Positions 2,529-60,246 of a stretch of 64,000 nucleotides of DNA are shown piece after piece (the stretch's first letter is position 1; every line of letters starts with the position of its first letter). This stretch comes from Candidatus Omnitrophota bacterium. GTDB lineage: Bacteria > Omnitrophota > Omnitrophia > Omnitrophales > Aquincolibacteriaceae. The DNA lies in the NCBI GenBank assembly GCA_903856085.1, contig CAIOAT010000003.1, positions 64,318-128,317 on the forward strand. Direction: 5' to 3'. Position numbers and translations under genes: made by a program. The notes beneath the pieces were generated by a model that ran no database searches, was not told where the DNA came from, and was given only the letters and a program-made list of their open reading frames with translations.

Positions 2529-3146
2529 ATGAAAAAACTTCCCCGAAAGATCATTACAAGGGTTCTGCTGTACATACGGACGCTTGAAGGCTTGGTCAAG
2601 GAGAAGCGTTTTCTGGTTTCTTCGAAGCAGCTTTCGGAGATCACAGGGCTTTCGGACGTCAAGATCCGCAAGGACATCTCGAATTTTAAGAAAGTCGGGA
2701 AGCCCCGCATCGGTTATAAAACCGTAGATTTGAAGAAGACGCTCGAGAATTATCTGCTCCAGAATAATACGGTGCATTTAGTTCTTTTTGGAGTTGGAAA
2801 TCTTGGTTCGGCGATTTTGCAGTATCCTGGGTTCAATCGCGACAAGATCAAATTTGTCGCTGCGTTTGATGTCTCGCGTCACAAAATCGGCAAGAAGATC
2901 AACGGTGTGGGGATTTATCCCGTGGAACGGGCGCCGGTGATCATTAAACGGTGCCATGCCGATATCGGGATCATCGCGGTACCGAAAGAACAGGGCCAGG
3001 AAGTAGCGGATTATATGGTATTATCGGGGCTTCACCGGATCGTTAATTTCGCGCCTTGTTCGATCAGCGTTCCTGCGAAGGTGCAGGTTCGTAATATCGA
3101 TTTTACGATTGAGTTTTTGTCGCTTTTTTGCGATTCGCCGAAGTAG
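2529..3146 (+). CDS. rex: Redox-sensing transcriptional repressor Rex
   Basis: 205 aa; N-terminal winged-helix (ITRVLLYIRTLEGL...SSKQLSEITGLSDVKIRKD) and Rossmann fold GxGxxG (VLFGVGNLGSAIL) typical of Rex; sits between two hydrogenase operons. Confidence 0.8.
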   Translation: MKKLPRKIITRVLLYIRTLEGLVKEKRFLVSSKQLSEITGLSDVKIRKDISNFKKVGKPRIGYKTVDLKKTLENYLLQNNTVHLVLFGVGNLGSAILQYPGFNRDKIKFVAAFDVSRHKIGKKINGVGIYPVERAPVIIKRCHADIGIIAVPKEQGQEVADYMVLSGLHRIVNFAPCSISVPAKVQVRNIDFTIEFLSLFCDSPK

Positions 3147-3175
3147 AAGCCTCAACGAAAATGCGGGAGGATGCT

Positions 3176-3517
3176 ATGGAATATGACGCGCAAAAGATCC
3201 TGAGCCAGTTTAATGAAGCCATGGTGGATATCCGTAAGGCTGTGCCCAAGGAATATGAGGCTTTCATAAAAGAAAAGGAAGTGATACTTGCTTCCGGGAA
3301 GGTTCCGGAAAAGACCAAGTGGTTGCTTCTTTTGGTGGCTAGTACGACTCAGAAATGTCCGGTCTGTATCCCCCGGGCGGTACGTCATTGCCTGGATGCG
3401 GGTTGGACGAAAGAAGAAATGCTTGAGGCTTGCATGGTGGCGGTGCTTGTGGGTGGTTCCAGCGCTATGACTTATGTGTCGTTGGTAGATAAAGCCATCG
3501 AACAGATGAAAAAATAG
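3176..3517 (+). CDS. Carboxymuconolactone decarboxylase/AhpD-like family protein with CxxC motif
   Basis: ORF 3128..3517 in track; the start preferred here is the ATG at 3176 preceded by GGGAGGA (3164-3170); contains CPVC...HC arrangement (TQKCPVCIPRAVRHC) characteristic of the AhpD/CMD core; track ORF start would overlap rex by 19 nt. Confidence 0.5.
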   Translation: MEYDAQKILSQFNEAMVDIRKAVPKEYEAFIKEKEVILASGKVPEKTKWLLLLVASTTQKCPVCIPRAVRHCLDAGWTKEEMLEACMVAVLVGGSSAMTYVSLVDKAIEQMKK

Positions 3518-3635
3518 AAAAAAGATACGGCTGAATAAGTCCAGTTTTTTGAATTTTTTTCTAAAGGGTGAATTGGACTAACCCTAGCATCCTTTGATGA
3601 AAAGAAAATAAGAGGCCAGGACAAGGAGCTTTTGA

Positions 3636-4127
3636 ATGGATAAAGAGATTTTAGAGCGAGAGGTCCGAGAAATCGCGGATTCCTGGAAAGACAAAGAAGG
3701 GAATCTGATCATGGTGCTCCACCAGATCCAGAACCGGTATGGCTACGTGCCGCGCGAGGTTTCGCTCGTGCTTTCCGAAATCCTGGATGTGCCGCTTGCC
3801 CGCATTTACGAAGTCATCACGTTCTATCATTTCTTCCGTTTGACCCCTCCAGGCAAGCACACGATCTCTGTTTGTATGGGAACTGCCTGCTATCTCAAGG
3901 GCGGGGCTGAGCTTTTGGGGGAGCTGGAACATCTTCTTTGCGTAAAACCCGGGGAGACGACCAAAGATGGTCAATTCCATTTGGAAATGGTGCGCTGTCT
4001 GGGGTGCTGTGGGTTGGCGCCTGTGTTGAAAATCGGGGAGAAGGTTTATGGTGGTGTGAAGAAAAAAGATATCGGTGACATCATCGCGCATTATTCCGAA
4101 GAAGCTGAAGCTCAGGCGATCGCGTAA
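3636..4127 (+). CDS. NuoE-like thioredoxin-fold [2Fe-2S] subunit of NAD(P)-linked [FeFe]-hydrogenase (HndA/HydC-like)
   Basis: 163 aa; 24-kDa-subunit-like cysteine pattern CMGTACYLKG ... CLGCCGLAP. Confidence 0.8.
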   Translation: MDKEILEREVREIADSWKDKEGNLIMVLHQIQNRYGYVPREVSLVLSEILDVPLARIYEVITFYHFFRLTPPGKHTISVCMGTACYLKGGAELLGELEHLLCVKPGETTKDGQFHLEMVRCLGCCGLAPVLKIGEKVYGGVKKKDIGDIIAHYSEEAEAQAIA

Positions 4128-4144
4128 CGGAGAGGCAGGCACCT

Positions 4145-4495
4145 ATGATTAAAATGACAAAGAAAGACTTAGACGCCACAAAACAGAAATATGCTGAAGC
4201 GGATCGTAACTGGATCAAGGTGGGTTTTAGCACCTGCGGGATCGCGGCTGGGGCCAAGGAAGTTTATGACACGTTGGTCGAAGAAAGCCGCAAGCACAGC
4301 GCTGACGTGGAGATTAAAAAATGCGGGTGTGTAGGGATGTGCTCCGCGGAACCGCTCGTGGAGGTTCATGTTAAGAATATGCCGACGGTGTTTTACGGCA
4401 AGGTCGATAAAGAGGTCGCGACCAAGATCATGGAAAAGCATGTGTGCGGCAAGATGCTTGTGAACGACAAGATCTACGATTTGAAACTTAATTGA
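4145..4495 (+). CDS. Small thioredoxin-like [2Fe-2S] ferredoxin subunit (HndB-like)
   Basis: 116 aa; four Cys (STCGIAAG, KKCGCVGMCS); position between NuoE-like and NuoF-like genes as in Hnd-type operons. Confidence 0.6.
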   Translation: MIKMTKKDLDATKQKYAEADRNWIKVGFSTCGIAAGAKEVYDTLVEESRKHSADVEIKKCGCVGMCSAEPLVEVHVKNMPTVFYGKVDKEVATKIMEKHVCGKMLVNDKIYDLKLN

Positions 4496-4510
4496 GGATT
4501 TGGGGAAGCT

Positions 4511-6250
4511 ATGGGAAAGACAGTTTTCATTAAAGATACGGCGATCACGGGGAAGGACCGGACACGCGATTTCTATGGGGTGTTTCTCGGGACTTTGAGA
4601 GAAAAAGGGCTGGAGAACGAGGTTCAGCTCGTGCGTGTTGCGGATATTGGCATTTACGGCCAAGGGATGACTGTTCGGGTGTTGCCTGAAAATTTTCTTT
4701 ATACGAACGTTCAGGAGAATGATATCCCGGCGATCGTTCAGGACAGCGTTGTGGGAGGTAGGCCTGTCGAGGGGAAGGCGAGCGCGCAGCCCTCCAAGCA
4801 GCTTCGGATCGTGCTTCGTAATTGCGGCGTGATCGATCCAGAAAGCATTGAGGACTATATCGCGCGGGACGGATATCAGGCCCTCGCGAAGGTCCTCACT
4901 GAATACACGCCTGAAAAGGTGGCTCAGGAAATTAAAAATTCGGGACTCAGGGGGCGTGGCGGTGCGGGGTTCCCGACGGGATTGAAATGGGACATTACGC
5001 GCAAGGCCCAGGGCGACCAGAAATATATTATCTGTAACGGTGACGAAGGGGACCCAGGTGCGTACATGGACCGCAGCGTGCTGGAGGGCGATCCCCATTC
5101 CGTGATTGAGGGCATGACCATCGGAGCGTACGCGATTGGTGCTTCCAAGGGATATTTCTATATTCGGGCGGAGTATCCTCTTGCCATCGAGAGGATCGAA
5201 AAAGCCATGCGTCAGTGCCATGAGCGCGGGATTCTTGGCAATGGTATCTTGGGTTCTTCCTTTAATTTTGATCTCGAGATCCGTTTGGGTGCCGGGGCTT
5301 TCGTGTGCGGCGAGGAAACAGCGCTCATTGCTTCTATCGAAGGCAAACGGGGTTATCCGAGTCCGCGGCCTCCCTTTCCGTCTATTAAAGGACTTTGGGG
5401 AAGGCCGACCTGTATCAATAACGTTGAGACTCTAGCGAATATTCCGGTCATTGTGATGAAAGGCGGGGCCTGGTTCGCGGGTATTGGGACCGAGACCTCG
5501 AAGGGGACCAAGGTGTTTGCCGTCACCGGGAAGGTGAAGAATTCCGGTCTTGTGGAAGTTCCGATGGGGACTGCGGTCGAAGATGTTGTTTATGGAATTT
5601 GTGGCGGGGCGATGGCCGGGAAGAATGTCAAGGCGATTCAAACCGGAGGTCCTTCTGGGGGCGTGATCCCGAAAGAATTTTTCCAGACTAAAGTGGATTA
5701 CGAAAGTTTGCAAAAAATGGGTTCCATTATGGGCTCCGGCGGCATGATCGTTATGGACGAGGACGATTGCATGGTGGATATCGCTAAATTCTATCTTGGA
5801 TTTTGTGTGGATGAATCTTGCGGAAAGTGCGCTCCATGCCGTATCGGGGGAACGCAGATGTTGAAACTTCTTGTGAAGGTTACCGACGGAGAGGGGACGC
5901 AAAAGGATCTGGACCAGCTCGAGCAAATCTCCTTTGCCATGCAAAAAGCTTCTCTTTGCGGTCTTGGACAAACGGCCCCGAATCCCGTGCTTTCGACCTT
6001 GCATTATTATCGTGCCGAATATGATGCTCATGTGGACAAAAAGAAATGCCCGGCCTGTAAATGCGCCAAGTTGGTTCGGTTTATGATTATGAGCGAAAAA
6101 TGCGTGAAATGCGGCATGTGTTTTAAGGCCTGCCCTGTGGGCGCCATTTCCGGAAATCGCGAAAGCGGTTATTTGATCGATCAGACAAAATGTATTCGCT
6201 GTGGTCAATGCTTTGAGGTTTGTAAACCCCGCGCGATCAGCCGGGGCTAA
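4511..6250 (+). CDS. NuoF-like NAD(P)H-binding flavoprotein subunit of hydrogenase (HndC/HydB-like) with C-terminal 2x[4Fe-4S] ferredoxin domain
   Basis: 579 aa; GRGGAGFPTG nucleotide site, FMN region, ESCGKCAPCR 4Fe-4S, C-terminal CVKCGMCFKACP and CIRCGQCFEVC; N-terminal ~100 aa Cys-less. Confidence 0.85.
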   Translation: MGKTVFIKDTAITGKDRTRDFYGVFLGTLREKGLENEVQLVRVADIGIYGQGMTVRVLPENFLYTNVQENDIPAIVQDSVVGGRPVEGKASAQPSKQLRIVLRNCGVIDPESIEDYIARDGYQALAKVLTEYTPEKVAQEIKNSGLRGRGGAGFPTGLKWDITRKAQGDQKYIICNGDEGDPGAYMDRSVLEGDPHSVIEGMTIGAYAIGASKGYFYIRAEYPLAIERIEKAMRQCHERGILGNGILGSSFNFDLEIRLGAGAFVCGEETALIASIEGKRGYPSPRPPFPSIKGLWGRPTCINNVETLANIPVIVMKGGAWFAGIGTETSKGTKVFAVTGKVKNSGLVEVPMGTAVEDVVYGICGGAMAGKNVKAIQTGGPSGGVIPKEFFQTKVDYESLQKMGSIMGSGGMIVMDEDDCMVDIAKFYLGFCVDESCGKCAPCRIGGTQMLKLLVKVTDGEGTQKDLDQLEQISFAMQKASLCGLGQTAPNPVLSTLHYYRAEYDAHVDKKKCPACKCAKLVRFMIMSEKCVKCGMCFKACPVGAISGNRESGYLIDQTKCIRCGQCFEVCKPRAISRG

Positions 6251-6286
6251 GATAAGACAGAATTCATAGTGAGAGAAGGAGAAGTT

Positions 6287-8038
6287 ATGGTTAATGCTAT
6301 TATTAACGGGCTGAAAGTCGAAGTGCCCGCGAATACCACCATTTTAGATGCGGCAAAAAAGGTCCAGACTAGGATTCCGACGCTTTGCAAGCACCCTGAT
6401 TCCTACCTGCACGCTTCTGCGGCTTGCGGTATTTGCATCGTAAGGGTCAAGGGTACTAAAAAGATGTTGCGGGCCTGTTGCACTCCTTTGGAAGAGGGGA
6501 TGGACATTGTGACTCACGATCCGGAAATCGTATCGATTCGCAGGACGGTTCTGGAGCTTATTCTTTCCAATCATCCGAACGAATGTCTGACCTGCGGAAG
6601 GAATAACAATTGCGAACTGCAGTCTCTGGTGGCGGATTTTGGGATTCGGGAAGAATTCTATGAAAAGATCGTCCGGGATATTCCCATAGACGATTCGACC
6701 GGGAACATCGTGCTGGAACCCCGGAAGTGTATCAACTGCGGCCGCTGCGTCGATGTTTGCCAGAATGTACAGGACGTGTGGGCGCTTACTTTTCTTCAGC
6801 GAGGATTTAATACCCGTATTGCAGCGGCAGGGGATATTAGCTTGGCCGAATCCCCTTGCGTTCGGTGCGGGCAGTGTGCCGCTCATTGTCCGACCGGAGC
6901 GATCTTTGAGAAAGACGATACGAAGCTTGCGTGGAAAGCGCTTCGTGATCCAGAACAATATTGCGTGGTCCAGATCGCCCCTGCGGTGCGTGTGGCGCTT
7001 GGAGAGGCTTTCGGTTTTCCGCTCGGAGCCAATGTAACGAAGAAAATGTACACCGCTCTTCGGCGTATGGGTTTTAAGGCGGTCTTCGATACGAATTTTG
7101 CCGCAGATGTGACCATCATGGAAGAAGCGAGCGAATTTATCGAGCGGTTCGTCCATAAGAAAGGACCCCTTCCGCTCATCACGACCTGCTGTCCTTCGTG
7201 GGTGGATTTTATGGAAAAATTTCATTCGGATATGATCCCGTATTTCTCTTCCTCGAAATCGCCGCATGAGATGATGGGTGTGCTGATCAAAACCTATTAC
7301 GCGGAAAAGAACAAGTTGGATCCCGCGAAAATTAAAGTGATCTCGATCATGCCTTGCACGGCCAAGAAGTTTGAGATTTCGCGTAGCCACGAGATGTCAG
7401 TTTCTGGATTCCAAGACGTAGACGTGGTGCTCACGACTCGGGAACTTGCGCGAATGATCAAACAGTCATGTATCAATTTTTCAAACCTTCCAGACACGGA
7501 ATGTGATCATATTTTGGGGGATTATAGCGGTGCCGGAACGATCTTCGGGGCGACCGGCGGTGTGATGGAAGCGGCGCTGCGCACGGCCTATTCCTTTGCG
7601 ACAGGCAAAAAGCTTCCCAAAGTTGAATTTGAAAACGTCCGGGGCTTAAAAGGCGTCAAAGAGACTTCGGTCAACATTGAAGGCACGGAAGTAAAGATCG
7701 CGGTTGCGCATGGTCTTGCGAATGTGGAATATGTTCTTACTCAAATACGCAAGGCCCAGAAGGAGGGCAAACCTCTCCCGTATCACTTTGTCGAGGTCAT
7801 GGCTTGCCCTGGCGGCTGCGTAGGCGGTGGTGGACAGCCGTATGGCGTGACGGATGAACTGCGTTTGGCGCGTGCGAAGGGACTTTATTCGGATGACGAG
7901 GCCCAAACGGTCCGATGCTCGCATGAGAATCCGTATGTGCAGCAGCTTTACAAGGATTTTCTCGGGAAGCCCTTAAGTGAGAAGGCCCACCATCTGTTGC
8001 ATACGAAGTATCAGCCGTTGCCTATTTATAGGCGGTAA
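6287..8038 (+). CDS. hydA: [FeFe]-hydrogenase catalytic subunit (HndD/HydA-like)
   Basis: Start chosen at ATG 6287 (MVNAIING) with AAGGAG RBS; H-cluster motifs TTCCPSW, MPCTAKKFE, EVMACPGGCVGGGGQP; N-terminal 2Fe-2S and 4Fe-4S motifs; paralog of 678..2450. Confidence 0.85.
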   Translation: MVNAIINGLKVEVPANTTILDAAKKVQTRIPTLCKHPDSYLHASAACGICIVRVKGTKKMLRACCTPLEEGMDIVTHDPEIVSIRRTVLELILSNHPNECLTCGRNNNCELQSLVADFGIREEFYEKIVRDIPIDDSTGNIVLEPRKCINCGRCVDVCQNVQDVWALTFLQRGFNTRIAAAGDISLAESPCVRCGQCAAHCPTGAIFEKDDTKLAWKALRDPEQYCVVQIAPAVRVALGEAFGFPLGANVTKKMYTALRRMGFKAVFDTNFAADVTIMEEASEFIERFVHKKGPLPLITTCCPSWVDFMEKFHSDMIPYFSSSKSPHEMMGVLIKTYYAEKNKLDPAKIKVISIMPCTAKKFEISRSHEMSVSGFQDVDVVLTTRELARMIKQSCINFSNLPDTECDHILGDYSGAGTIFGATGGVMEAALRTAYSFATGKKLPKVEFENVRGLKGVKETSVNIEGTEVKIAVAHGLANVEYVLTQIRKAQKEGKPLPYHFVEVMACPGGCVGGGGQPYGVTDELRLARAKGLYSDDEAQTVRCSHENPYVQQLYKDFLGKPLSEKAHHLLHTKYQPLPIYRR

Positions 8039-8129
8039 TATCAAGTAGCGTGGTTTTGAGTTCCTGAAGAAGAGGGCCCGCATAAGCTGGCCTGAAGCTA
8101 AGGGAAAGACAATCAAATAGTTGTCTTGT

Positions 8130-8163
8130 CCCAGCTTCCTCCCAGGAGCTGGGATTTTTTTTT
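8130..8163 (+). terminator. Rho-independent terminator after hnd operon (CCCAGCT / AGCTGGG stem followed by T9)
   Basis: Inverted repeat cccagct...agctggg at 8130-8153 followed by tttttttttt at 8155-8163, immediately downstream of the second hydA. Confidence 0.7.
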
Positions 8164-8226
8164 GGCGACAGCGGGACGCATCCGTCAGGCTTTAGGATGC
8201 ATAACGAACCGGAAAGGACGAGACGT

Positions 8227-8475
8227 ATGAACAAACGTTTGGGATTTGTCGGGATCATTATTGAGGATCGCAAGAAGGCAGCCGAAGAGGTGAACCATCT
8301 GCTTTCGGAGCACGGAGACATGGTCGTGGCGCGTGTCGGGATCCCGTATAAGGAAAAACATTGCTGCGTGATTACTCTGATTGTGGATACGACGACCGAT
8401 GAATTGGGAGCTCTCACCGGAAAACTTGGAACGCTCGAAGGTGTGTCGGTCAAATCTGCGCTCACGAAAGCTTAA
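8227..8475 (+). CDS. TM1266-like ACT-domain protein (putative iron-only hydrogenase system regulator family)
   Basis: 82 aa from ATG 8227 (MNKRLGFVGIIIEDRKKAAEEVNHLLSEHGDMVVARVGIPY...); small ACT-like fold pattern and genomic context directly upstream of hydF/hydG/hydE. Confidence 0.6.
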   Translation: MNKRLGFVGIIIEDRKKAAEEVNHLLSEHGDMVVARVGIPYKEKHCCVITLIVDTTTDELGALTGKLGTLEGVSVKSALTKA

Positions 8476-8489
8476 GGAAAAACAAAGAC

Positions 8490-9878
8490 ATGACAAACCG
8501 TATCGAGCAAGATCCCCTTGGCAGCAAAGAGGTGCCTGAAAATGCTTATTGGGGCATTCATACTCAGCGTGCCATTGAGAATTTTCCATTGAGTGGGCTT
8601 CGTGTGTCCCCGGGATTGATCCGCGCTTTGGTCACAGTCAAGAAGGCCGCATGTCTTGTGAACCTGGAATTGGGTTATCTCGCGGAGGAAAAAGCCAAAG
8701 CTATTTCGGCAGCCTGCGATGAAATCCTTGAGGGGAAATTATCCGACCATTGGCCGCTTGATGCGCTCCAGGGGGGTGCAGGAACTTCGACGAACATGAA
8801 CGTGAACGAAGTGATCGCCCATCGCGCAATCGAAATCCTGGGCGGAAAAAAAAGCCAGTACGAGCTTGTTCATCCGATTGAAGACGTGAACCTGCATCAG
8901 TCCACAAACGATGTTTACCCGACGGCTCTCAAAATGGCGGCGATCCTGGGACTTAAAACATTGAGTGAGGCAGCCGCGCAACTGCAGGGAGCTTTTCAGC
9001 AAAAAGAAAAAGAATTCGTCGGGATCATTAAAATAGGGAGGACCGAACTCCAGGAAGCCGTTCCTTTGACGTTGGGCGCAGAATTTGCGGCGTTTGCAGA
9101 GGCGGCAGCGCGCGATCGTTGGCGTACCTTTAAGTGCGAGGAGCGTTTGCGCGTTGTGAATCTCGGTGGTACCGCCATCGGAACCGGACTCGGCGCGCCG
9201 CACCGTTATATATTCCTCCTCATCGAAAAGTTACGCGAGATTACAGGGCTTGGCCTGAGCCGGAGCGAAAATATGATCGATGCCACGGCGAATGCGGATC
9301 CGTTCGTAGAAGTCTCCGGGATCTTAAAAGCTCACGCAAGCAATTTGCTGAAGATCGCAAATGATCTGCGGCTTATGAATCTCTTGGGCGAGATCGCGTT
9401 GCCGGGGCTTCAAAGCGGTTCTTCCATCATGCCGGGCAAAGTCAATCCTGTGATTCTGGAGGCCGTGATGCAAGCGGGGCTCAAGGTGATAGCCAATGAT
9501 CTTCTCGTGACGGAAGCAGCCTCACGCGGGTCATTTCAGATATGCGAATTCATGCCGCTTTTGGCCCACGCCCTGTTGGAGTCGATCGAAATTTTGACCC
9601 ATGCGGATCAAATGTTGGCGGCACATGTTGGCGGGATCAAAGCCGATCCGGAAAAGTGCCGGAAGTATGTCGATCAATCCGAAGGGATCATGACAGCGTT
9701 TGTGCCGTATCTCGGCTATGACAAAGCGGGCGAACTCTTGAAAGCGTTCAAGGCTTCGGCGCAGGGGAATCTCCGGGGGTTTCTGGAAGACCGGCTGGGT
9801 AAGGAAATTGTAGCGAAGACGCTTTCTCCTCAGAATCTTTTAGCGTTAGGGCACAAGGACCATGGAAAAAACACCTAA
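8490..9878 (+). CDS. Aspartate ammonia-lyase family protein (fumarate-lyase superfamily)
   Basis: 462 aa; fumarate-lyase signature GSSIMPGKVNP; N-terminus (EQDPLGSKEVPENAYWGIHTQRAIENF) closer to aspartase than class II fumarase; overlaps hydF start by 17 nt. Confidence 0.75.
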   Translation: MTNRIEQDPLGSKEVPENAYWGIHTQRAIENFPLSGLRVSPGLIRALVTVKKAACLVNLELGYLAEEKAKAISAACDEILEGKLSDHWPLDALQGGAGTSTNMNVNEVIAHRAIEILGGKKSQYELVHPIEDVNLHQSTNDVYPTALKMAAILGLKTLSEAAAQLQGAFQQKEKEFVGIIKIGRTELQEAVPLTLGAEFAAFAEAAARDRWRTFKCEERLRVVNLGGTAIGTGLGAPHRYIFLLIEKLREITGLGLSRSENMIDATANADPFVEVSGILKAHASNLLKIANDLRLMNLLGEIALPGLQSGSSIMPGKVNPVILEAVMQAGLKVIANDLLVTEAASRGSFQICEFMPLLAHALLESIEILTHADQMLAAHVGGIKADPEKCRKYVDQSEGIMTAFVPYLGYDKAGELLKAFKASAQGNLRGFLEDRLGKEIVAKTLSPQNLLALGHKDHGKNT

Positions 9879-11118
9879 ATCACTGCGGTTGCAGATCGGG
9901 ATCTTTGGTCGCACCAATGTGGGGAAATCGAGTTTTCTCAACATGGTGGCCGGCCAGGATGTGGCGGTTACTTCACCTGTGCCCGGCACGACCACGGATG
10001 TCGTCGAAAAGACCATGGAGCTTTTGCCGATCGGACCGGTGGTTTTTCTTGATACCGGGGGTATGGACGACAGTTCCGTATTGTCAGAAAAACGAATACA
10101 GAGAACGAAAAAGATTTTTGATCGCGCGGATGTCGTGGTGCTTGTGACCGAGCCCGAACAATGGACCGGGTTTGAAGACGCGATCTGTGACGAAGCTACG
10201 GAGAAAAAAGCTCCCTTGATTGTGGTAGTCAACAAAACGGATCTGGGTGTCCCGACCGCCGGTTTTCTTCAAAAGATTCGCGGGCGTTCAGAACGTATTT
10301 TGCTTTGTTCAAGCGTGGATGTCAGCAAACGAGATGATCTCGTGAACGATCTTAAGCGGAATCTGCTCGAAGTTTGTCCGGAGGATTTCCTGAGGCCGCC
10401 TCCCTTGATCGGAGATCTTGTGCCGGCGGGCGGACTTGTGGTCCTGATCGTTCCGATCGATCTTGAAGCGCCCAAAGGTCGCTTGATCTTGCCTCAGGTC
10501 CAGACGATCCGGGAAGTTCTGGATAGTGACGCCGCGGTGCTGGTGGTCAAAGAACGGGAATACGCCGCTTTGCTTATGCGGCTGAAGAACCCGCCGGACC
10601 TTGTGGTCTGTGATTCGCAAGTGGTGCTCAAGATGGTTGCCGATACACCGCCGGCGGTCAAATGTACGACATTTTCCATTCTTTTTTCGAGGCTTAAGGG
10701 CGATCTGACCGAAATGGTCAAAGGTGTTACGGCGATCGACAGATTGAAGTCTGGGGACAAGGTTCTGATCGCGGAATCTTGCAGTCATCACGCCGTCGAA
10801 GATGACATTGGCCGTGTAAAGATTCCGCGTTGGCTCAGGCAATACGCGGGCGTGGAACTGGATATAAGGAGCTCCGCGGGTCGCGATTATCCGGAGGACC
10901 TTGAGACTTACAAGCTCATTATTCATTGCGGGTCGTGCATGCTGACGCGCCGGGAGATGCTTTTTCGTATCGGAAAGGCAAAGGCCAGGGGTGTTCCTAT
11001 CACGAATTACGGTGTCGCGATCTCGTTTGTCCAAGGAGTGCTTGATAGGACGCTTGCGCCATTTCCGATGGTGCTAGAAGCTTATCGGAGCCAGATTCAA
11101 GCAGGAGAGAGGAAATAA
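9862..11118 (+). CDS. hydF: [FeFe]-hydrogenase H-cluster maturation GTPase HydF
   Basis: 418 aa; GTPase motifs GRTNVGKSS, DTGG, NKTD; C-terminal Fe-S ligands CSHH ... HCGSC. Confidence 0.85.
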   Translation: MEKTPKSLRLQIGIFGRTNVGKSSFLNMVAGQDVAVTSPVPGTTTDVVEKTMELLPIGPVVFLDTGGMDDSSVLSEKRIQRTKKIFDRADVVVLVTEPEQWTGFEDAICDEATEKKAPLIVVVNKTDLGVPTAGFLQKIRGRSERILLCSSVDVSKRDDLVNDLKRNLLEVCPEDFLRPPPLIGDLVPAGGLVVLIVPIDLEAPKGRLILPQVQTIREVLDSDAAVLVVKEREYAALLMRLKNPPDLVVCDSQVVLKMVADTPPAVKCTTFSILFSRLKGDLTEMVKGVTAIDRLKSGDKVLIAESCSHHAVEDDIGRVKIPRWLRQYAGVELDIRSSAGRDYPEDLETYKLIIHCGSCMLTRREMLFRIGKAKARGVPITNYGVAISFVQGVLDRTLAPFPMVLEAYRSQIQAGERK

Positions 11119-11121
11119 AAA

Positions 11122-12618
11122 ATGAATACTCAGTTTCAAGATGTTCATCCGTGGATCAGAGATCGAATTAAACAGGACCAGATCGATCGCTATCTCGATC
11201 ATGGCCGTGATTTTATCGATGATGCCGGGATCTGGAACAAAATCGAGACAGCGCTGGAACCCGATGCCGCAACCGTGCGTGCTCTTCTCTCGAAATCGCT
11301 TTCCGTCCAGACACTTACGCCGGAAGAACTGGCGGTGCTGATCCGCGTTCAGGATCCCGAGATGCTGCAGGAAATGGAAGTCGCCGCTTTTACGATCAAG
11401 AAAAAGGTCTATGACAACCGCATCGTCACGTTCGCGCCGCTTTACATGGGCAATTACTGTGTGAATAACTGCGCCTATTGTGGATTCAAACAGGAGAATC
11501 TCAAGGCGAAGCGCCGTGTCCTTTCGATGGATGAGATTCGTAAAGAGACTGAAAGTTTGACCGGGAAGATCGGTCACAAGCGTATTATCGCGGTCTACGG
11601 CGAGCATCCGCTGACGGGGATCGATTATATCCTGGAGAGCATGAAAACGATCTACGATGTGAAGACGCCGACCAAACACGGCTACGGTAATATCCGCCGT
11701 ATCAATGTGAATGCCGCGCCGATGTCGATCGAGGAGCTTACGCGTCTTCGGGATGGCGGGCTCGGAACCTATCAGGTGTTCCAGGAAACGTATCACCACG
11801 AGACTTACGCGAAGCTTCATCCGAAGGGCACGCTTAAATCCGATTACCGGTGGCGGCTCTATGCCATGCATCGCGCGATGGAGGCAGGGATCGATGACGT
11901 GGGGATCGGCGTGCTGTTCGGACTCTATGATTGGCGTTTTGAGGTGATGGCGCTTCTTTATCACGCCCTCCACCTCGAGGCAAAGATGGGGATCGGCCCG
12001 CACACGGTTTCGTTCCCGCGCATGGAACCCGCTCTCAATTCCGAATATGCCGAACATTCGCCCTACAAAGTTTCCGACGAAGATTTCAAGAAGATCATTC
12101 TGCTGATCCGTCTCGCCATTCCTTACACCGGCATGATCATCACAGCACGCGAGACGGCCCCGATGCGCCGCGCTGCGATCGGTCTCGGTATCACGCAGAC
12201 CGATGCTTCCACAAAGATTGGGATCGGAAGTTACAGCGAAGAGGGAAAGGGCCAGGAATCCGAACGGCAACAGTTCATGCTTGGCGATACGCGGAGCCTC
12301 GACGAGTTGGTCAAGGATTTCGCGGAAATGGGACACATTACTTCGTTTTGCACAGCCGGATATCGATGTGGCCGGACTGGAAAATGCATCATGGATCTGC
12401 TTCGTAGCGGTCAGGAAGGAAAATTCTGCAAACTGAACGCCGTGCTGACTTTTCAGGAATGGTTGGATGATTTCGCGACCCCGGCAACCCGCGAAGCCGG
12501 ACTCCGGGTTCTCGAGCGTGAGCTCGAAGAGATCCGTACCCGGAATCCTCAAGGGTTCCCGGTTTTTTATCAATTCCTTGAACGTGTTCGTAAAGGGGAG
12601 AGGGATCTCTTTCTGTAA
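11122..12618 (+). CDS. hydG: [FeFe]-hydrogenase maturase HydG (radical SAM tyrosine lyase)
   Basis: 498 aa; radical SAM CVNNCAYCGF; C-terminal auxiliary cluster cysteines (CTAGYRCGRTGKC). Confidence 0.85.
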   Translation: MNTQFQDVHPWIRDRIKQDQIDRYLDHGRDFIDDAGIWNKIETALEPDAATVRALLSKSLSVQTLTPEELAVLIRVQDPEMLQEMEVAAFTIKKKVYDNRIVTFAPLYMGNYCVNNCAYCGFKQENLKAKRRVLSMDEIRKETESLTGKIGHKRIIAVYGEHPLTGIDYILESMKTIYDVKTPTKHGYGNIRRINVNAAPMSIEELTRLRDGGLGTYQVFQETYHHETYAKLHPKGTLKSDYRWRLYAMHRAMEAGIDDVGIGVLFGLYDWRFEVMALLYHALHLEAKMGIGPHTVSFPRMEPALNSEYAEHSPYKVSDEDFKKIILLIRLAIPYTGMIITARETAPMRRAAIGLGITQTDASTKIGIGSYSEEGKGQESERQQFMLGDTRSLDELVKDFAEMGHITSFCTAGYRCGRTGKCIMDLLRSGQEGKFCKLNAVLTFQEWLDDFATPATREAGLRVLERELEEIRTRNPQGFPVFYQFLERVRKGERDLFL

Positions 12619-12649
12619 ACGAATAAGGCGCACGGAGTATGGATAAAAA

Positions 12650-13711
12650 ATGCAAGATCTGACACGGGAAGAGATGCTGGCGTGGTTTAGCGAAAAAGAT
12701 CCTCAGAAGCTCGAGGGGCTTTTCCGGGAGGCGCGTGCGTGCGCCATCCGGCATGTGGGCTCCAAAGTTTATTTTCGTGGCATTATTGAGTTCAGCAATC
12801 TCTGTGCGAAAGATTGTTACTATTGTGGTATTCGCAAGAGCAACCCGAATGTTCCCCGTTTCACCATGAGTGAACATGAGATCCTGGAATGTGCGATGGC
12901 AGCTCAAGAAATGGACTATGGATCCATCGTTCTACAGTCCGGCGAGCGCCAGGATGAGGTCTTTGTCCGTTTCATTGAGGGTGTGCTCCGGAAGATCAAA
13001 AACGCAACTTCCGGAAAACTGGGAATCACGCTTTCCTTGGGGGAGCAAACCGCGGAAACTTATGCGCGATGGTTTGGGGCGGGTGCGCACCGGTATCTTC
13101 TCCGGATCGAGACAAGTGATCCTGTTCTCTACAAGAGACTTCACCCTCCAGATCATTCCTTCGAAACGCGTCGCGAATGTCTCAGAACGCTCCGCCGTAT
13201 AGGCTATCAGGTTGGGACCGGTGTTATGATCGGTCTTCCTTTCCAGACGCACGAAAATCTGGTCGAAGATATTCTGTTCTTCAAGAACGAAGAGATTGAT
13301 ATGATTGGCATGGGGCCGTATGTTCCTCATGGAGAGACACCTCTGGTGCAAGAAGTTGATACCGGGGAAAATTTCAGACTTGGGCTCGTGATGATCGCTC
13401 TTTCAAGACTCACCCTGAAAAACGTGAATATTGCGGCCGCGACCGCGCTCCAAACGCTGGATCCCTCCGGAAGAGAAAAAGGGGTTCAGGCCGGTGCTAA
13501 TATCATCATGCCGAACATTACGCCTACGGACTATCGCAAGTTCTACCAGCTTTACGACAACAAGCCTTGTCTCGATGAAAACGCTCGCCAGTGCAAGAGC
13601 TGTCTTGAGAAGCGTATCCGAGCGGCAGGGGCTGAGATCGGCTATGGCGAATGGGGTGATTCCGTGCATTTTTTGAAAAAGCAGAAATCCTTAAAAGAAA
13701 GCAAGTCGTAG
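12650..13711 (+). CDS. hydE: [FeFe]-hydrogenase maturase HydE (radical SAM)
   Basis: 353 aa; CAKDCYYCGIR radical SAM motif; biotin-synthase-like fold pattern; follows hydG. Confidence 0.8.
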   Translation: MQDLTREEMLAWFSEKDPQKLEGLFREARACAIRHVGSKVYFRGIIEFSNLCAKDCYYCGIRKSNPNVPRFTMSEHEILECAMAAQEMDYGSIVLQSGERQDEVFVRFIEGVLRKIKNATSGKLGITLSLGEQTAETYARWFGAGAHRYLLRIETSDPVLYKRLHPPDHSFETRRECLRTLRRIGYQVGTGVMIGLPFQTHENLVEDILFFKNEEIDMIGMGPYVPHGETPLVQEVDTGENFRLGLVMIALSRLTLKNVNIAAATALQTLDPSGREKGVQAGANIIMPNITPTDYRKFYQLYDNKPCLDENARQCKSCLEKRIRAAGAEIGYGEWGDSVHFLKKQKSLKESKS

Positions 13712-13993
13712 GTGGTATGTAGTAGGTTGTGTTGCCATCTATGATTTTTGAGGTGTATTCTACGCTTGATATCTTCAAAAAATATGATAGAACATAGTGC
13801 CGTCGGATCGGCAAAGGCCTGTTTTAAGAACCCGCCCAGTCCCAATATCAACGATCGAAGGGAAGCTGAGCGTGTGGTCGTCTGAACCGTCATGGGTGAA
13901 GTGAAAAGTTTGGGCGGAAATAGGGCAGCTCGGGATTCCTATTGAGCAATGGAAGATGAAAGCCGCGACACGTGCAATCTAACGAGGTGGACC

Positions 13994-14377
13994 ATGGATA
14001 AAAAAGAATTCTACGCGAAGTCGGAAAAGATTATTAATGAAACTTTTGAGGCTGTCAAAAAGTACGCCAAGGTTGTGGCGGAAAAGACGGGAGAGGCGGC
14101 CCATGTCACGAGGCTTTTGATCCAGAAAGCGACCCTAGAGCATCAGATGACCAAGGCGTTCTCCCAACTGGGCAGCCAGGTCTATCAAACGACAGAGAGA
14201 CAGGGAGAGAAGCTTGATCTTGAGGCTCCCGAGATACAGAAGGTGCTCGGAGAGATCAAAAAACTAGACACCGAACTCGGTCAGGTCGAAGCGGTGCTTG
14301 AAAAGGAACGTAAGGTCAAGGCCGTCAAAGAAGCTAAGTTGAAATCTGTCCGAAAGCGAACAGGCAAGTCCTCATAA
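13994..14377 (+). CDS. Hypothetical coiled-coil protein (phasin-like composition)
   Basis: ORF 13949..14377; ATG 13994 preceded by GAGGTGG; K/E-rich heptad-like sequence; no recognised catalytic motif. Confidence 0.4.
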   Translation: MDKKEFYAKSEKIINETFEAVKKYAKVVAEKTGEAAHVTRLLIQKATLEHQMTKAFSQLGSQVYQTTERQGEKLDLEAPEIQKVLGEIKKLDTELGQVEAVLEKERKVKAVKEAKLKSVRKRTGKSS

Positions 14378-14407
14378 AGATCGCAAGTCATTGAAATTAT
14401 AATTCAT

Positions 14408-14489
14408 GCGAGCGTGGTGAAACTGGCAGACACATCAGCTTGAGGGGCTGACGCCGCAAGGCATGGAGGTTCAAGTCCTCTCGCTCGCA
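14408..14489 (+). tRNA. tRNA-Leu (anticodon GAG), class II with long variable arm
   Basis: Acceptor stem GCGAGCG/CGCTCGC, 3-bp D-stem GTG/CAC with GG in D-loop, anticodon stem TCAGC/GCTGA with loop TTGAGGG (anticodon GAG, G37), 14-nt variable arm, T-arm GGAGG-TTCAAGT-CCTCT, discriminator A; CCA not encoded; architecture parallels E. coli tRNA-Leu. Confidence 0.85.
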
Positions 14490-14595
14490 TTTGTTTTTTG
14501 TCAAACAAGTACGTCCTCGTGACGGTTCAGGGAAGGCCGTCTGCGATGAACGCATTGTTTTTACAACCTTGTTACCTCAGAGGAATCCACAGGAT

Positions 14596-15963
14596 ATGAT
14601 CCCATCCCATATTTTTAGAGAATACGATATTCGAGGCATTGCGGGAAAAGAACTTACGGAAGAGGTTGCTCTCGCAATCGGGAAGGCGTTCGGCTCAGTT
14701 CTGATCCGTGAAGGCAAGAAAAATATTGCCGTCGCGCATGATCACCGATGGAGCTGGGAATTCCTTTTTCGCGGACTGTCAAACGGGCTTCAGAGCTGCG
14801 GACTTACGGTGATTGATATCGGATTGGCCCCGACTCCGGTTCTCTATTTTTATGTGACGAACAATAAACTCGATGCTGGGATCTCGCTGACGGGTTCTCA
14901 CAATCCTCCGGATGAAAACGGTTTCAAATTCCAGCATGCCAGCCGCTCCTTCTACGGGAAGGAAATTCAGAATCTCAAGCTGGTCATCGACAAAAATGAT
15001 TTTGTGACCGGTCAGGGCAAGGTCGAGCAGCCGGACCACGCGGGAGTCCTCAAGTCCTACGAGGATTTTATAGCGAGCGGATTCAAATTCACAAAAAAAC
15101 TGAAGGTCGTTTTGGATACGGGGCATGGCATGGGCGGCCTTACGGCACCGACGCTTATTCGTCGGTTCGGGCACGATGTGACTGTTCTTTTTGAGAATCT
15201 CGATCCTAAAATGCCGGACCATCAAGCCGATCCGTCGGTACCTGATAATCTAAAAGATCTTCAACGGAAAGTTGTTGAGATAAAAGCGGATATTGGCATT
15301 GCTTTTGACGGAGATGCCGACCGTATCGGCGTGGTCGATGAAAAAGGGCATATCCTTTTTGGCGACAAACTTCTTCTTCTTTATGCGCGCGAGATCCTTA
15401 CCCGCAAGCCGGGCGCGGTGATCATCGGGGACGTAAAAAGTTCCAAGCAAATCTACGACGATATTGCCAAACGTGGCGGAAAACCTCTGATGTGGAAGAC
15501 CGGACATTCCCTTATCAAGGCGAAGATGAAAGAAACCGGCGCTGAGATGGCGGGGGAGATGAGCGGACACATGTTCTTTAAAGACCGTTGGCTCGGATTT
15601 GATGACGCGGTTTACGCGGCGTGCAGGATCCTTGAGATCGCGGACAAGGCGAATGCGCCGTTTTCAACGCTCCTTGCCGATGTGCCGCAATTGGTGAATA
15701 CGCCTGAAATCCGTTTTGAACTTCCCGAAGAGATTAAATTCAAGGTGATTGCTCAGGTTGTGGCGAACCTCAAAAAGAAATATGAGGTTATTGATATCGA
15801 TGGCGCCCGTGTCCAATTTCCGGACGGGTGGGGGTTGGTGCGTGCCTCGAATACCCAGCCTGTGCTCGTGATGCGCTTTGAAGCCGAGACTCAAAAGCGT
15901 CTTGATGAGATCCGGGCGATCGTCGAGAATGAGCTCAAGACCGTGATGCGCGGGATGAGCTGA
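14596..15963 (+). CDS. Phosphomannomutase/phosphoglucomutase
   Basis: ATG 14596 (MIPSHIFREYDIRG...); active-site serine loop GSHNPPDENG; track ORF begins at a TTG inside the tRNA flank, judged spurious extension. Confidence 0.8.
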   Translation: MIPSHIFREYDIRGIAGKELTEEVALAIGKAFGSVLIREGKKNIAVAHDHRWSWEFLFRGLSNGLQSCGLTVIDIGLAPTPVLYFYVTNNKLDAGISLTGSHNPPDENGFKFQHASRSFYGKEIQNLKLVIDKNDFVTGQGKVEQPDHAGVLKSYEDFIASGFKFTKKLKVVLDTGHGMGGLTAPTLIRRFGHDVTVLFENLDPKMPDHQADPSVPDNLKDLQRKVVEIKADIGIAFDGDADRIGVVDEKGHILFGDKLLLLYAREILTRKPGAVIIGDVKSSKQIYDDIAKRGGKPLMWKTGHSLIKAKMKETGAEMAGEMSGHMFFKDRWLGFDDAVYAACRILEIADKANAPFSTLLADVPQLVNTPEIRFELPEEIKFKVIAQVVANLKKKYEVIDIDGARVQFPDGWGLVRASNTQPVLVMRFEAETQKRLDEIRAIVENELKTVMRGMS

Positions 15964-59152: not shown

Positions 59153-60246
59153 TGAACCGCGGCGAAAGCATCCTCCAGAAACGCCTGAACGGCGAGAGGC
59201 TGACCCTCGAAGAGGGTGTGGGGCTTTATGCTTGCGATCTTTTAAGGTTAGGGCAAGTCGCGCAAAAGCTGACGCCGAGGCTTGTGTCAAACGCCGTCAC
59301 TTTTGTTGTGGACCGCAATATCAGCTACACCAATGTTTGTACGATAGGCTGCGATTTTTGCGCCTTTCATTGCACTCCCGGCGCTCCCGAAGCGTATGTC
59401 CTCTCCAAGGAAGAGATCCTGGAAAAAGTCCGGGAGCTCGCGGAGCTTGGAGGGACACAGGTCCTCATTCAGGGAGGCGTTCATCCGGATCTGCCGCTGA
59501 ATTACTATCTTGATATGGTTCGTGCGATCCATGAGAAATTTCCGAAGATCCGCATCCATTCTTTTTCGGCCATCGAAATGGACACTCTTGCGCAGAAAAG
59601 CAAGGTGCCCTTGCCCGAACTTTTCCGGATTTTCAAAGAAGCGGGTCTCAATTCTCTCCCCGGTGGTGGGGCGGAGATCCTTGTGGAGCGCACAAGAAAG
59701 CTCATCAGCCCGGCCAAGATTTCGTCCGACCGATGGCTCATGGTTATGCGGGTTGCGCATGACGCAGGTCTGAAGACTACGGCGACTATGGTTTTTGGCC
59801 ATGTCGAAACACTCGAGGAGCGTATTTTCCATTTGATCCGGTTGCGGGAATTGCAAGATCAGACGTACGGCTTCCGTGCGTTCATCCCTTGGAGTTTTGT
59901 GCCGCAAGGCACTCCCGGTATGAGTCATATAAAACCCGTGGGGGGGGATGACTACCTCAAGACCGTTGCAATCGCGCGTCTTATGCTCGATAATTTCGAG
60001 CATATTCAAAGCGGTTGGCTTACGGAGGGATTGAAGCTCGGGCAGATCGCGCTCGCATTCGGTTGCGATGATATGGGGGGTACGCTGATCGAGGATAAGG
60101 TCCTCGAGCCCACAGGTATCAAGGTCCATACCCGACGTGAGGACCTAATCCGCCTCATCCGAGATGCTGGGTTTATCCCCGTTCAGCGAGACACGGACTA
60201 CAGAATCTTAAAAGTTTTTGGGGAGGCGAGTGATGTCCATTCCTGA
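59152..60246 (+). CDS. MqnE/MqnC-family radical SAM enzyme (aminofutalosine synthase or cyclic dehypoxanthinyl-futalosine synthase)
   Basis: 364 aa; radical SAM Cys triad CTIGCDFCAF; family-typical length; adjacency to mqnA. Confidence 0.6.
   Translation: MNRGESILQKRLNGERLTLEEGVGLYACDLLRLGQVAQKLTPRLVSNAVTFVVDRNISYTNVCTIGCDFCAFHCTPGAPEAYVLSKEEILEKVRELAELGGTQVLIQGGVHPDLPLNYYLDMVRAIHEKFPKIRIHSFSAIEMDTLAQKSKVPLPELFRIFKEAGLNSLPGGGAEILVERTRKLISPAKISSDRWLMVMRVAHDAGLKTTATMVFGHVETLEERIFHLIRLRELQDQTYGFRAFIPWSFVPQGTPGMSHIKPVGGDDYLKTVAIARLMLDNFEHIQSGWLTEGLKLGQIALAFGCDDMGGTLIEDKVLEPTGIKVHTRREDLIRLIRDAGFIPVQRDTDYRILKVFGEASDVHS

Follow-up and report, generated by a model that had tools for sequence, protein, structure and literature searches.

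Within a 64,000-nucleotide (nt) stretch of the genome of a Candidatus Omnitrophota bacterium (contig CAIOAT010000003.1, positions 64,318 to 128,317; hereafter the window), a gene for an aspartase-type lyase lies between hydA, which encodes an [FeFe] hydrogenase, and hydF, which encodes a GTPase and scaffold of H-cluster maturation, and it is preceded by a short gene of the TM1266 family. The specific partner of this lyase is hydF, because the adjacency of the two genes recurs across phyla and extends to isolated two-gene modules. The lyases partnered in this way form a clade that is separate from the housekeeping aspartases and has an invariant motif of its own. We consider the lyase to be a probable maturation-dedicated aspartate ammonia-lyase paralogue that supplies ammonium for the dithiomethylamine (DTMA) ligand of the H-cluster, a reading to which we give a probability of about 0.62; this figure applies to the lyase part of the explanation, the role of the TM1266 protein being far less certain. 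Of all the parts of [FeFe]-hydrogenase maturation, the in vivo origin of the H-cluster's NH bridgehead is the least settled. The ammonium-supply role of such a lyase is the current published view and is not new here, and the locus adds a further instance of an arrangement already known, leaving the overall picture unchanged. Our own contribution is a modest one: the HydF-partnered lyases are a distinct paralogue family with a sharp signature, and the branch to which the window's lyase belongs has a shortened catalytic-loop hinge.

An initial annotation, made from the sequence of the window, had placed an 82-residue ACT-like (TM1266) protein and a full-length lyase with a GSSIMPGKVNP loop between hydA and hydF, and this description proved accurate throughout. 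The overlap of 17 nt that it gave for the lyase and hydF is exact, the ATG of hydF being at 9862 and the TAA stop of the lyase at 9876–9878, within the codons of the conserved TPK motif of HydF. The hydF start is secure, because the HydF profile alignment begins at residue 3 and the N-terminus (M-x-x-TPK-x-LRLHI) is kept in relatives. The gene order is hydABC-type structural genes, TM1266, lyase, hydF, hydG and hydE (coordinates in Table 1).

Linkage of the lyase to hydF

Eighty loci from species-representative genomes were fetched with the lyase as the query and then searched with the Hyd proteins of the window. HydF, HydG or HydE is encoded within 8 kb in 17 of the 20 closest loci (L001–L019 and L021), which have some 49–66% identity to the lyase in local tblastn segments; among the 60 more distant AspA/FumC loci, a hyd gene (for HydF) is nearby only in L022. 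In 14 of the 17 clade loci that are linked to hyd genes, the lyase gene and hydF are direct neighbors on the same strand; either order occurs, and the gap ranges from -17 to 73 nt. The features of the locus are not a product of chance, because this pair of genes is found again in at least 14 of those 17 loci, which come from many phyla. At least seven lineages are spanned: Omnitrophota, Planctomycetota, Betaproteobacteria, Bacillota, Fibrobacterota, Mycoplasmatota and Spirochaetota. Among the hosts are Omnitrophota, Planctomycetales, Kuenenia, Propionivibrio, Paenibacillus, Clostridium, Peptostreptococcaceae, Lachnospiraceae, Chitinispirillaceae, Mycoplasmatota and Treponema.

The overlap itself is also found elsewhere. 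Its sequence, ATGGAAAAAACACCTAA, is identical in a Planctomycetales genome (L003), and the same 17-nt architecture occurs in Kuenenia (L010) and in L089. Anaerocolumna cellulosilytica (L087) and L089 each have an isolated hydF–lyase module of two genes, with no other hyd gene within 6 kb; in Oxobacter pfennigii (L088) the order is TM1266-hydE-hydG-hydF-lyase, and the pair is likewise kept in a Thermodesulfobacterium cluster (L085) in which there is no hydG within 8 kb. Two apparent lyase–HydF fusions (P0297 and P0250) were considered as Rosetta-stone evidence and rejected; their joins are of low complexity and out of frame, on truncated contigs, and are frameshift artefacts.

Several individual loci have features of separate interest. 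In Anaerostipes faecalis (L022, 8001–13308), the lyase gene 2.7 kb from a hydF encodes an AspA of the housekeeping type that does not have the clade signature, and the opposite strand carries a second gene of the lyase family; here an ordinary aspartase may have been recruited to the vicinity of hydF. The isolated pair of A. cellulosilytica (L087, 4163–7326 of AP023367.1) is preceded by a gene for aspartate 1-decarboxylase (PanD), which places a second aspartate-consuming enzyme beside the module. In Paenibacillus wynnii (L009, 5346–10689) the lyase gene is flanked by two hydF paralogues (hydG-hydF-lyase-hydF). The Thermodesulfobacterium sp. cluster (lyase P0102; L085, 1–17374, and L086, from Logan SRR22214803 and SRR22214790) is a cluster for an [FeFe] hydrogenase that lacks hydG within 8 kb, and in it genes for the hydrogenase large and small subunits, a TM1266-like protein, HypE, HypC, the lyase and HydF are followed by those for a HydE-like radical SAM protein, a NifH-like ATPase, two NifD/K-like proteins, HypF and HypD; machinery of the [NiFe] type for CO and CN and a Nif-like reductase thus stand in the place expected for HydG. 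A full-text search turned up no paper in which this gene combination is mentioned.

A separate clade with an invariant signature

A neighbor-joining (rather than maximum-likelihood) tree was built from 80 locus proteins with E. coli AspA and E. coli FumC as references (82 in all). The hyd-linked lyases form one clade in this tree, with a bootstrap value of 82, or of 97 when the divergent L033 is included, and E. coli AspA is placed with the Bacillus-type enzymes in a neighboring clade. The initial annotation had entertained the contrary outcome, a lyase that groups with housekeeping AspA and has no conserved linkage to hydF in related genomes; neither is observed, because the clade is separate and the adjacency is conserved across phyla.

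The conservation of individual residues was followed in 260 members of the clade, of which 120 are related to the window protein, 120 are related to a Clostridiales member and 20 come from genome loci. Seven positions, Q170, E173, R210, W211, K215, R219 and R221, are invariant in all 260, and Q166 and E217 are so in 258. The signature can therefore be written as Q166/Q170/E173 together with R210-W211-x3-K215-x-E217-x-R219-x-R221. In 15 AspA and 44 FumC sequences these positions vary. They lie, in the model of the lyase, at the C-terminal ends of the bundle helices 139–176 and 195–220. A motif that is invariant in this clade only suggests some additional conserved property that ordinary aspartases do not need, and this property could be partner docking, an altered dynamics or control of the loop, or regulation.

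The subclade of the window's lyase (bootstrap 100) has a second peculiarity: it is without five residues (“SGPxxG”) at the end of helix 270–298, directly before the SS loop. This subclade takes in members from Syntrophus, Planctomycetales and Thermodesulfobacterium as well as all of the 120 closest listed clusters; in the rest of the clade, it is the Arg of the usual SGPR that is mostly lost.

Active site and probable substrate

The window's lyase is a member of the Lyase_1 family (PF00206, 273.5 bits) with the superfamily signature GSSxMPxKxN, present as GSSIMPGKVNP at residues 310–320. Its closest solved structures are aspartases (1J3U, E = 4e-114; 1JSW, E = 1.5e-107), on which its model superposes with a template-modelling (TM) score of 0.92. 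For the comparison of residues we used the numbering of AspB and the roles assigned to its residues in PMC11744663, in which Ser318 is catalytic and T187, M321, K324 and N326 make up the alpha-carboxylate pocket. The lyase has equivalents of AspB T101, S140, T141, N142, T187, S318, S319, M321, K324 and N326, and across the 260 clade members these ten positions show no variation or almost none, save that S319 is conservatively replaced by Thr in most members of the Bacillota branch. Aspartate is the most probable substrate, because the catalytic and aspartate-contacting residues are retained and the model superposes on aspartases.

One contact departs from the aspartase pattern. At the amine-contacting position, which is His188 in AspB and Gln in E. 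coli AspA, the window's lyase has Glu186. Across the clade this position is Glu in 250 of 260 members and Gln in the other 10, and about half of the clade members from genome loci have Gln, as does E. coli AspA.

When the window's lyase is set against E. coli AspA (1JSW) and AspB of Bacillus sp. YM55-1 (1J3U, 3R6V), the fold is the same (TM about 0.9) at 42–46% identity, and the SS loop with its catalytic Ser and the alpha- and beta-carboxylate contacts are held in common; the window's lyase differs in belonging to a sister clade, in its Glu at the amine contact, in its “SGPxxG” deletion, in a C-terminal domain that is weaker or divergent (no FumaraseC_C match) and in its QxxxQxxE and RWxxxKxExRxR motifs. 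It differs also in its score against the aspA equivalog model TIGR00839, which is 469.5 bits and below the cut-off of 681.2; five other members of the hyd clade score 445–558, and five proteins of the AspA clade 630–781. A looser subfamily model, NF008909, is passed (565 against a cut-off of 510), and it is because all of these lyases pass it that annotation pipelines give every one of them the name “aspartate ammonia-lyase.” Nor is the lyase a class II fumarase (FumC): its TIGR00979 score is 388.9 against a cut-off of 664.75, and in place of the FumC motifs QTGSGTQ, QSSND, GRTH and GSSIMPGKVNPTQxE it has QGGAGTS, QSTND, GRTE and ...NPVILE.

The Bacillota-branch lyases P0391–P0510 have peculiarities of their own, being some 20 residues shorter at the C-terminus (437–445 amino acids) and having mostly GST, not GSS, in the catalytic loop; none has a precomputed match to the FumaraseC_C domain.

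The lyase as a source of ammonium

In Pelobacter carbinolicus, the location of an aspartase gene between hydG and hydF drew comment in 2012 and was given a catabolic explanation (PMC3543383). The association of aspA with hydF was subsequently described from genome-context networks by Pagnier et al. (2024, J Biol Chem 300:107760; PMC11736057), who reported aspA, ilvA or sdaA within 20 open reading frames (ORFs) of 79% of authentic hydF genes. In their lysate-free, defined maturation, E. coli AspA and 15N-aspartate placed 15N in the DTMA bridgehead; they also note a stimulation of the HydF GTPase by ammonium and mention fumarate as a useful by-product (PMC11736057). A 2025 PNAS paper repeats the ammonium/DTMA scheme (PMC12501116). 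The gene in the window is of the same kind as the hyd-associated ammonia-lyase of Pagnier et al., an aspartase-family gene beside hydF in a hydEFG cluster, and the role proposed for it is the same, namely the provision of ammonium for the DTMA nitrogen by way of the glycine-cleavage H- and T-proteins. Their work recognized neighbors by Pfam domain only, with no phylogeny and without setting the hyd-linked genes apart as a clade. Neither the invariant signature nor the Glu in place of His188, the five-residue deletion or TM1266 is mentioned in it. The statement of the initial annotation that neither protein has an established role in H-cluster assembly is, in light of these papers (PMC3543383, PMC11736057), out of date for the lyase; for TM1266 it holds. 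Its proposal that the lyase belongs with maturation, perhaps as a supplier of ammonia, stands as the best reading in view of the conserved hydF adjacency and the separate clade.

In this scheme the lyase would most likely split L-aspartate into fumarate and ammonium. The published biochemistry would then have the glycine-cleavage T-protein load the ammonium, together with a serine-derived C1 unit, onto the lipoyl H-protein, and HydF would use the loaded unit to build the NH bridgehead of the DTMA ligand. The overlap of the two reading frames makes it likely that the lyase and HydF are produced together.

A number of observations weigh against this reading. Free ammonium alone suffices in vitro, so that the lyase is not strictly required, a linked aspA is absent in many organisms that contain hydF, and the 2024 experiment used the housekeeping AspA of E. 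coli (all PMC11736057); we found in the literature no enzyme assay of any lyase of the hyd-linked clade. The Glu at the amine contact and the shortening by five residues before the catalytic loop could mean that the kinetics or the substrate range differ from those of known aspartases. Three of 21 clade members (L005, L006 and L021) have no hyd genes within 8 kb; no other conserved partner of their lyases was apparent, the neighboring genes being unrelated (an efflux component, NeuB and an NlpA lipoprotein). TM1266 is missing from about half of the hyd-linked loci. Lastly, a scan found no promoter-like site between the TM1266 gene and the terminator-like hairpin upstream of it (described below), and the boundary of the maturase unit is thus a presumed one.

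The in vitro work of the field has relied on E. coli AspA as a stand-in; HydF's natural partner seems instead to be a separate paralogue with a sharply conserved signature. The hyd-linked lyases would thus be the better-suited proteins for reconstitution, and the signature names the residues to mutate; Oxobacter pfennigii, Anaerocolumna cellulosilytica and Sporobacter termitidis offer cultured points of entry. The signature could also sharpen annotation, by separating maturation-linked lyases from the metabolic aspartases to which pipelines now give an identical name.

Alternative roles for the lyase

A more elaborate proposal would make the hyd-linked lyases a dedicated fourth or fifth maturation factor, docking on HydF or on the glycine-cleavage H- or T-protein through the motif and the remodelled segment before the loop, handing nitrogen over locally or gating the HydF GTPase, and having TM1266 as a sensor or adaptor subunit; as a whole we regard this as speculative and rather unlikely.

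[quoted passage not shown] It would account for lyase and hydF genes that overlap or nearly abut across phyla, for the isolated lyase–hydF pairs and for nine positions that are invariant or nearly so in the hyd clade alone and variable in AspA and FumC, and it is in keeping with the stimulation of the HydF GTPase by ammonium (PMC11736057). The apparent fusions are, however, artefacts, and the motif may be partly buried and structural, positions 210 and 217 being mostly hydrophobic in FumC; we think it unlikely that partnership is the principal role.

The lyase could also be an ordinary catabolic aspartase carried in the cluster, where it would couple aspartate fermentation, or the provision of fumarate to accept electrons, to hydrogen metabolism and have no part in cofactor assembly. 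This was the role proposed for P. carbinolicus (PMC3543383); Pagnier et al. raised the usefulness of the fumarate by-product (PMC11736057), and the full set of aspartase catalytic residues in the lyase is what a catabolic enzyme would have. The conserved partner is, however, hydF and not hydA or a catabolic gene, even in the isolated two-gene modules, the clade with its own invariant motif is separate from housekeeping AspA, and no gene for a C4-dicarboxylate transporter or a fumarate reductase adjoins the lyase in the window, all of which makes a catabolic role quite improbable.

Least probable is that aspartate donates its nitrogen directly to a cofactor precursor in a GTP-dependent step on HydF and the lyase then removes fumarate from the N-substituted aspartate, in the manner of adenylosuccinate synthetase and lyase: the superfamily has such enzymes (argininosuccinate, adenylosuccinate and nitrosuccinate lyases are among the weaker family matches), the GTPase of HydF leaves room for such a step and the amine-contacting residue and loop region differ from those of characterised aspartases. 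Against it, either ammonium alone or E. coli AspA is enough for defined in vitro maturation (PMC11736057), a true aspartase has the same alpha-carboxylate pocket and the same aspartate contacts at all other positions, and Gln, as in E. coli AspA, is found at the 188 position in about half of those clade members that come from genome loci.

The TM1266-family protein

The first gene of the maturase string begins with the ATG at 8227 and ends at the stop at 8475, giving 82 amino acids, and an alternative start at 8197 would give 92. The start at 8227 is preferred because it fits the length (82–83 amino acids) and the N-terminus (MxKRLGFVG) of the homologues and because GGAAAGGA lies 8–15 nt upstream. 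By its profile scores (TIGR03959, 105.6 bits against a cut-off of 60.8; PF21699, 108.7 bits), its length of about 80 residues, its fold and its adjoining hyd maturase genes, the protein belongs to the TM1266 family. It matches the Thermotoga maritima protein TM1266 (2NZC; E = 2e-16) at 41% identity, with the same length and fold and the same association with hydE, hydF and hydG; here it is the lyase gene and not hydG that comes next. The AlphaFold2 (AF2) model (pLDDT 90) is a stand-alone beta-alpha-beta-beta-alpha-beta domain of the NikR-C/ACT-like type.

A profile search of the fetched loci detected TM1266 in 8 of 18 loci with hyd genes nearby and in L085/L086, and Oxobacter (L088) has it too; of some 60 loci that lack hyd genes, none contains it. 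In every case it leads a maturase string whose genes run in one direction, and the gene on its 3' side is hydG in four loci, hydE in L014, L016, L018 and Oxobacter, the lyase in the window and L002, and hypE in L085.

We found no experimental paper on TM1266, and its database label of “putative regulator” rests on fold and context only. Control of transcription of the hydrogenase system by TM1266 would agree with that curated name, with a closest fold neighbor, after 2NZC, in the regulatory C-domain of NikR, and with the leading position of the gene in every string. The protein is, however, a domain of regulatory type alone: neither the window protein nor any of 120 listed homologues, most of 81–93 amino acids, has a ribbon-helix-helix or other DNA-binding domain. 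The residues that are invariant across the family are N23, R36, G38, P40, G68 and K76, and the nickel site of NikR is absent, because no His or Cys column is conserved; the match to the NikR_C Pfam model is likewise below the cut-off (20.7 against 22), so that the protein is not a NikR. Moreover, a gene for a Rex-like repressor is already present upstream (2529–3146), and Rex is the more conventional candidate for transcriptional control of the hydrogenase genes. Such a function for TM1266 accordingly seems to us improbable. The protein differs in the same two respects, nickel ligands and a DNA-binding domain, from the NikR C-domain and the small regulatory subunits of ACT type (IlvN/IlvH) that it resembles, and the options are narrowed to the extent that it looks like neither a DNA-binding regulator nor a nickel sensor. 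We tentatively suggest that TM1266 might serve as an adaptor or ligand-sensing subunit with a maturase protein, and not DNA, as its target; we would sooner doubt this than rely on it, but we hold it to be likelier than binding to DNA.

Among the homologues, the longer TM1266 calls (such as that of 134 amino acids in L085) were considered as possible cases of an N-terminal DNA-binding extension; the additional residues look like an over-extended start and a Lys-rich tail, not a ribbon-helix-helix.

Transcription units

The 188-nt spacer between hydA and the TM1266 gene is unusually structured (folding z = -3.25), and the hairpin that it contains is the top-ranked terminator-like site in a scan of positions 3000–15000. 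In L002, from a relative within the Omnitrophota, a hairpin of 17 bp occupies the same position. The hairpin of the window probably ends or attenuates the transcript of the structural genes ahead of the maturase genes, and the maturase string would then be a separate or attenuated transcription unit led by TM1266. The gaps along the string TM1266/lyase/hydF/hydG/hydE are 14, -17, 3 and 31 nt, and the genes of 8227–13711 may well form one five-gene maturase unit that the hairpin sets apart from the hydABC-type genes.

Two further elements were sought and discarded. The 188-nt spacer matches no Rfam family of riboswitch or known leader RNA at threshold, the weak matches all being to the terminator hairpin, and the stretch from the hairpin to TM1266 holds no promoter of the sigma-70 type that could serve the maturase unit, the overall count of promoters being that expected from shuffled sequence.

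Gene coordinates and neighboring genes

Table 1. Features of the hydrogenase and maturase region of the window
Feature	Position	Strand	Evidence or remark
Structural operon (NuoE-like, 2Fe-2S, NuoF-like, HydA)	3636–8038	+	upstream of maturase genes
NuoE-like gene	3636–4127	+	NuoE family matches
Small 2Fe-2S protein gene	4145–4495	+	
NuoF-like gene	4511–6250	+	NuoF family matches
hydA, group A6 [FeFe] hydrogenase	6269–8038	+	NF040763, 802.6 bits
Intrinsic-terminator-like hairpin, 11-bp stem then T9	8128–8165	+	between hydA and TM1266 gene
TM1266-family gene, 82 amino acids	8227–8475	+	TIGR03959, PF21699
Aspartase-type lyase gene, 462 amino acids	8490–9878	+	Lyase_1
Overlap of lyase 3' end and hydF 5' end, 17 nt, ATGGAAAAAACACCTAA	9862–9878	+	
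hydF, H-cluster maturation GTPase and scaffold, 418 amino acids	9862–11118	+	TIGR03918, 526.7 bits; HydF_dimer and HydF_tetramer domains
hydG, radical SAM tyrosine lyase maturase, 498 amino acids	11122–12618	+	TIGR03955, 466.4 bits
hydE, radical SAM maturase, 353 amino acids	12650–13711	+	TIGR03956, 365.5 bits

No second lyase gene and no glycine-cleavage, serine hydroxymethyltransferase (SHMT) or lipoate genes were found elsewhere in the window. The only paralogue matches in the window are a second hydA and weak radical-SAM cross-matches, one of them near 59332–59772, and the annotated window ORFs up to about 33 kb are housekeeping genes. On the 3' side of hydE there is an ORF of 142 amino acids (13949–14490) without a Pfam or NCBIfam match, the start of which is placed differently by different gene callers on identical contigs (127–142 amino acids), and then a tRNA-Leu(GAG).

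Directly 5' of the hydABC-type operon (2529–3517) are the gene for the Rex-type redox-sensing repressor, with Put_DNA-bind_N and CoA_binding domains, and a gene of the carboxymuconolactone-decarboxylase family. The region 7–2450 holds the second [FeFe] hydrogenase (678–2450), which is 48% identical to the HydA of 6269–8038. Upstream of it is the 3' part of a gene for a pyridine-nucleotide-disulphide oxidoreductase that runs off the start of the window, and this suggests for the second hydrogenase a different, possibly NADPH-linked, partner.

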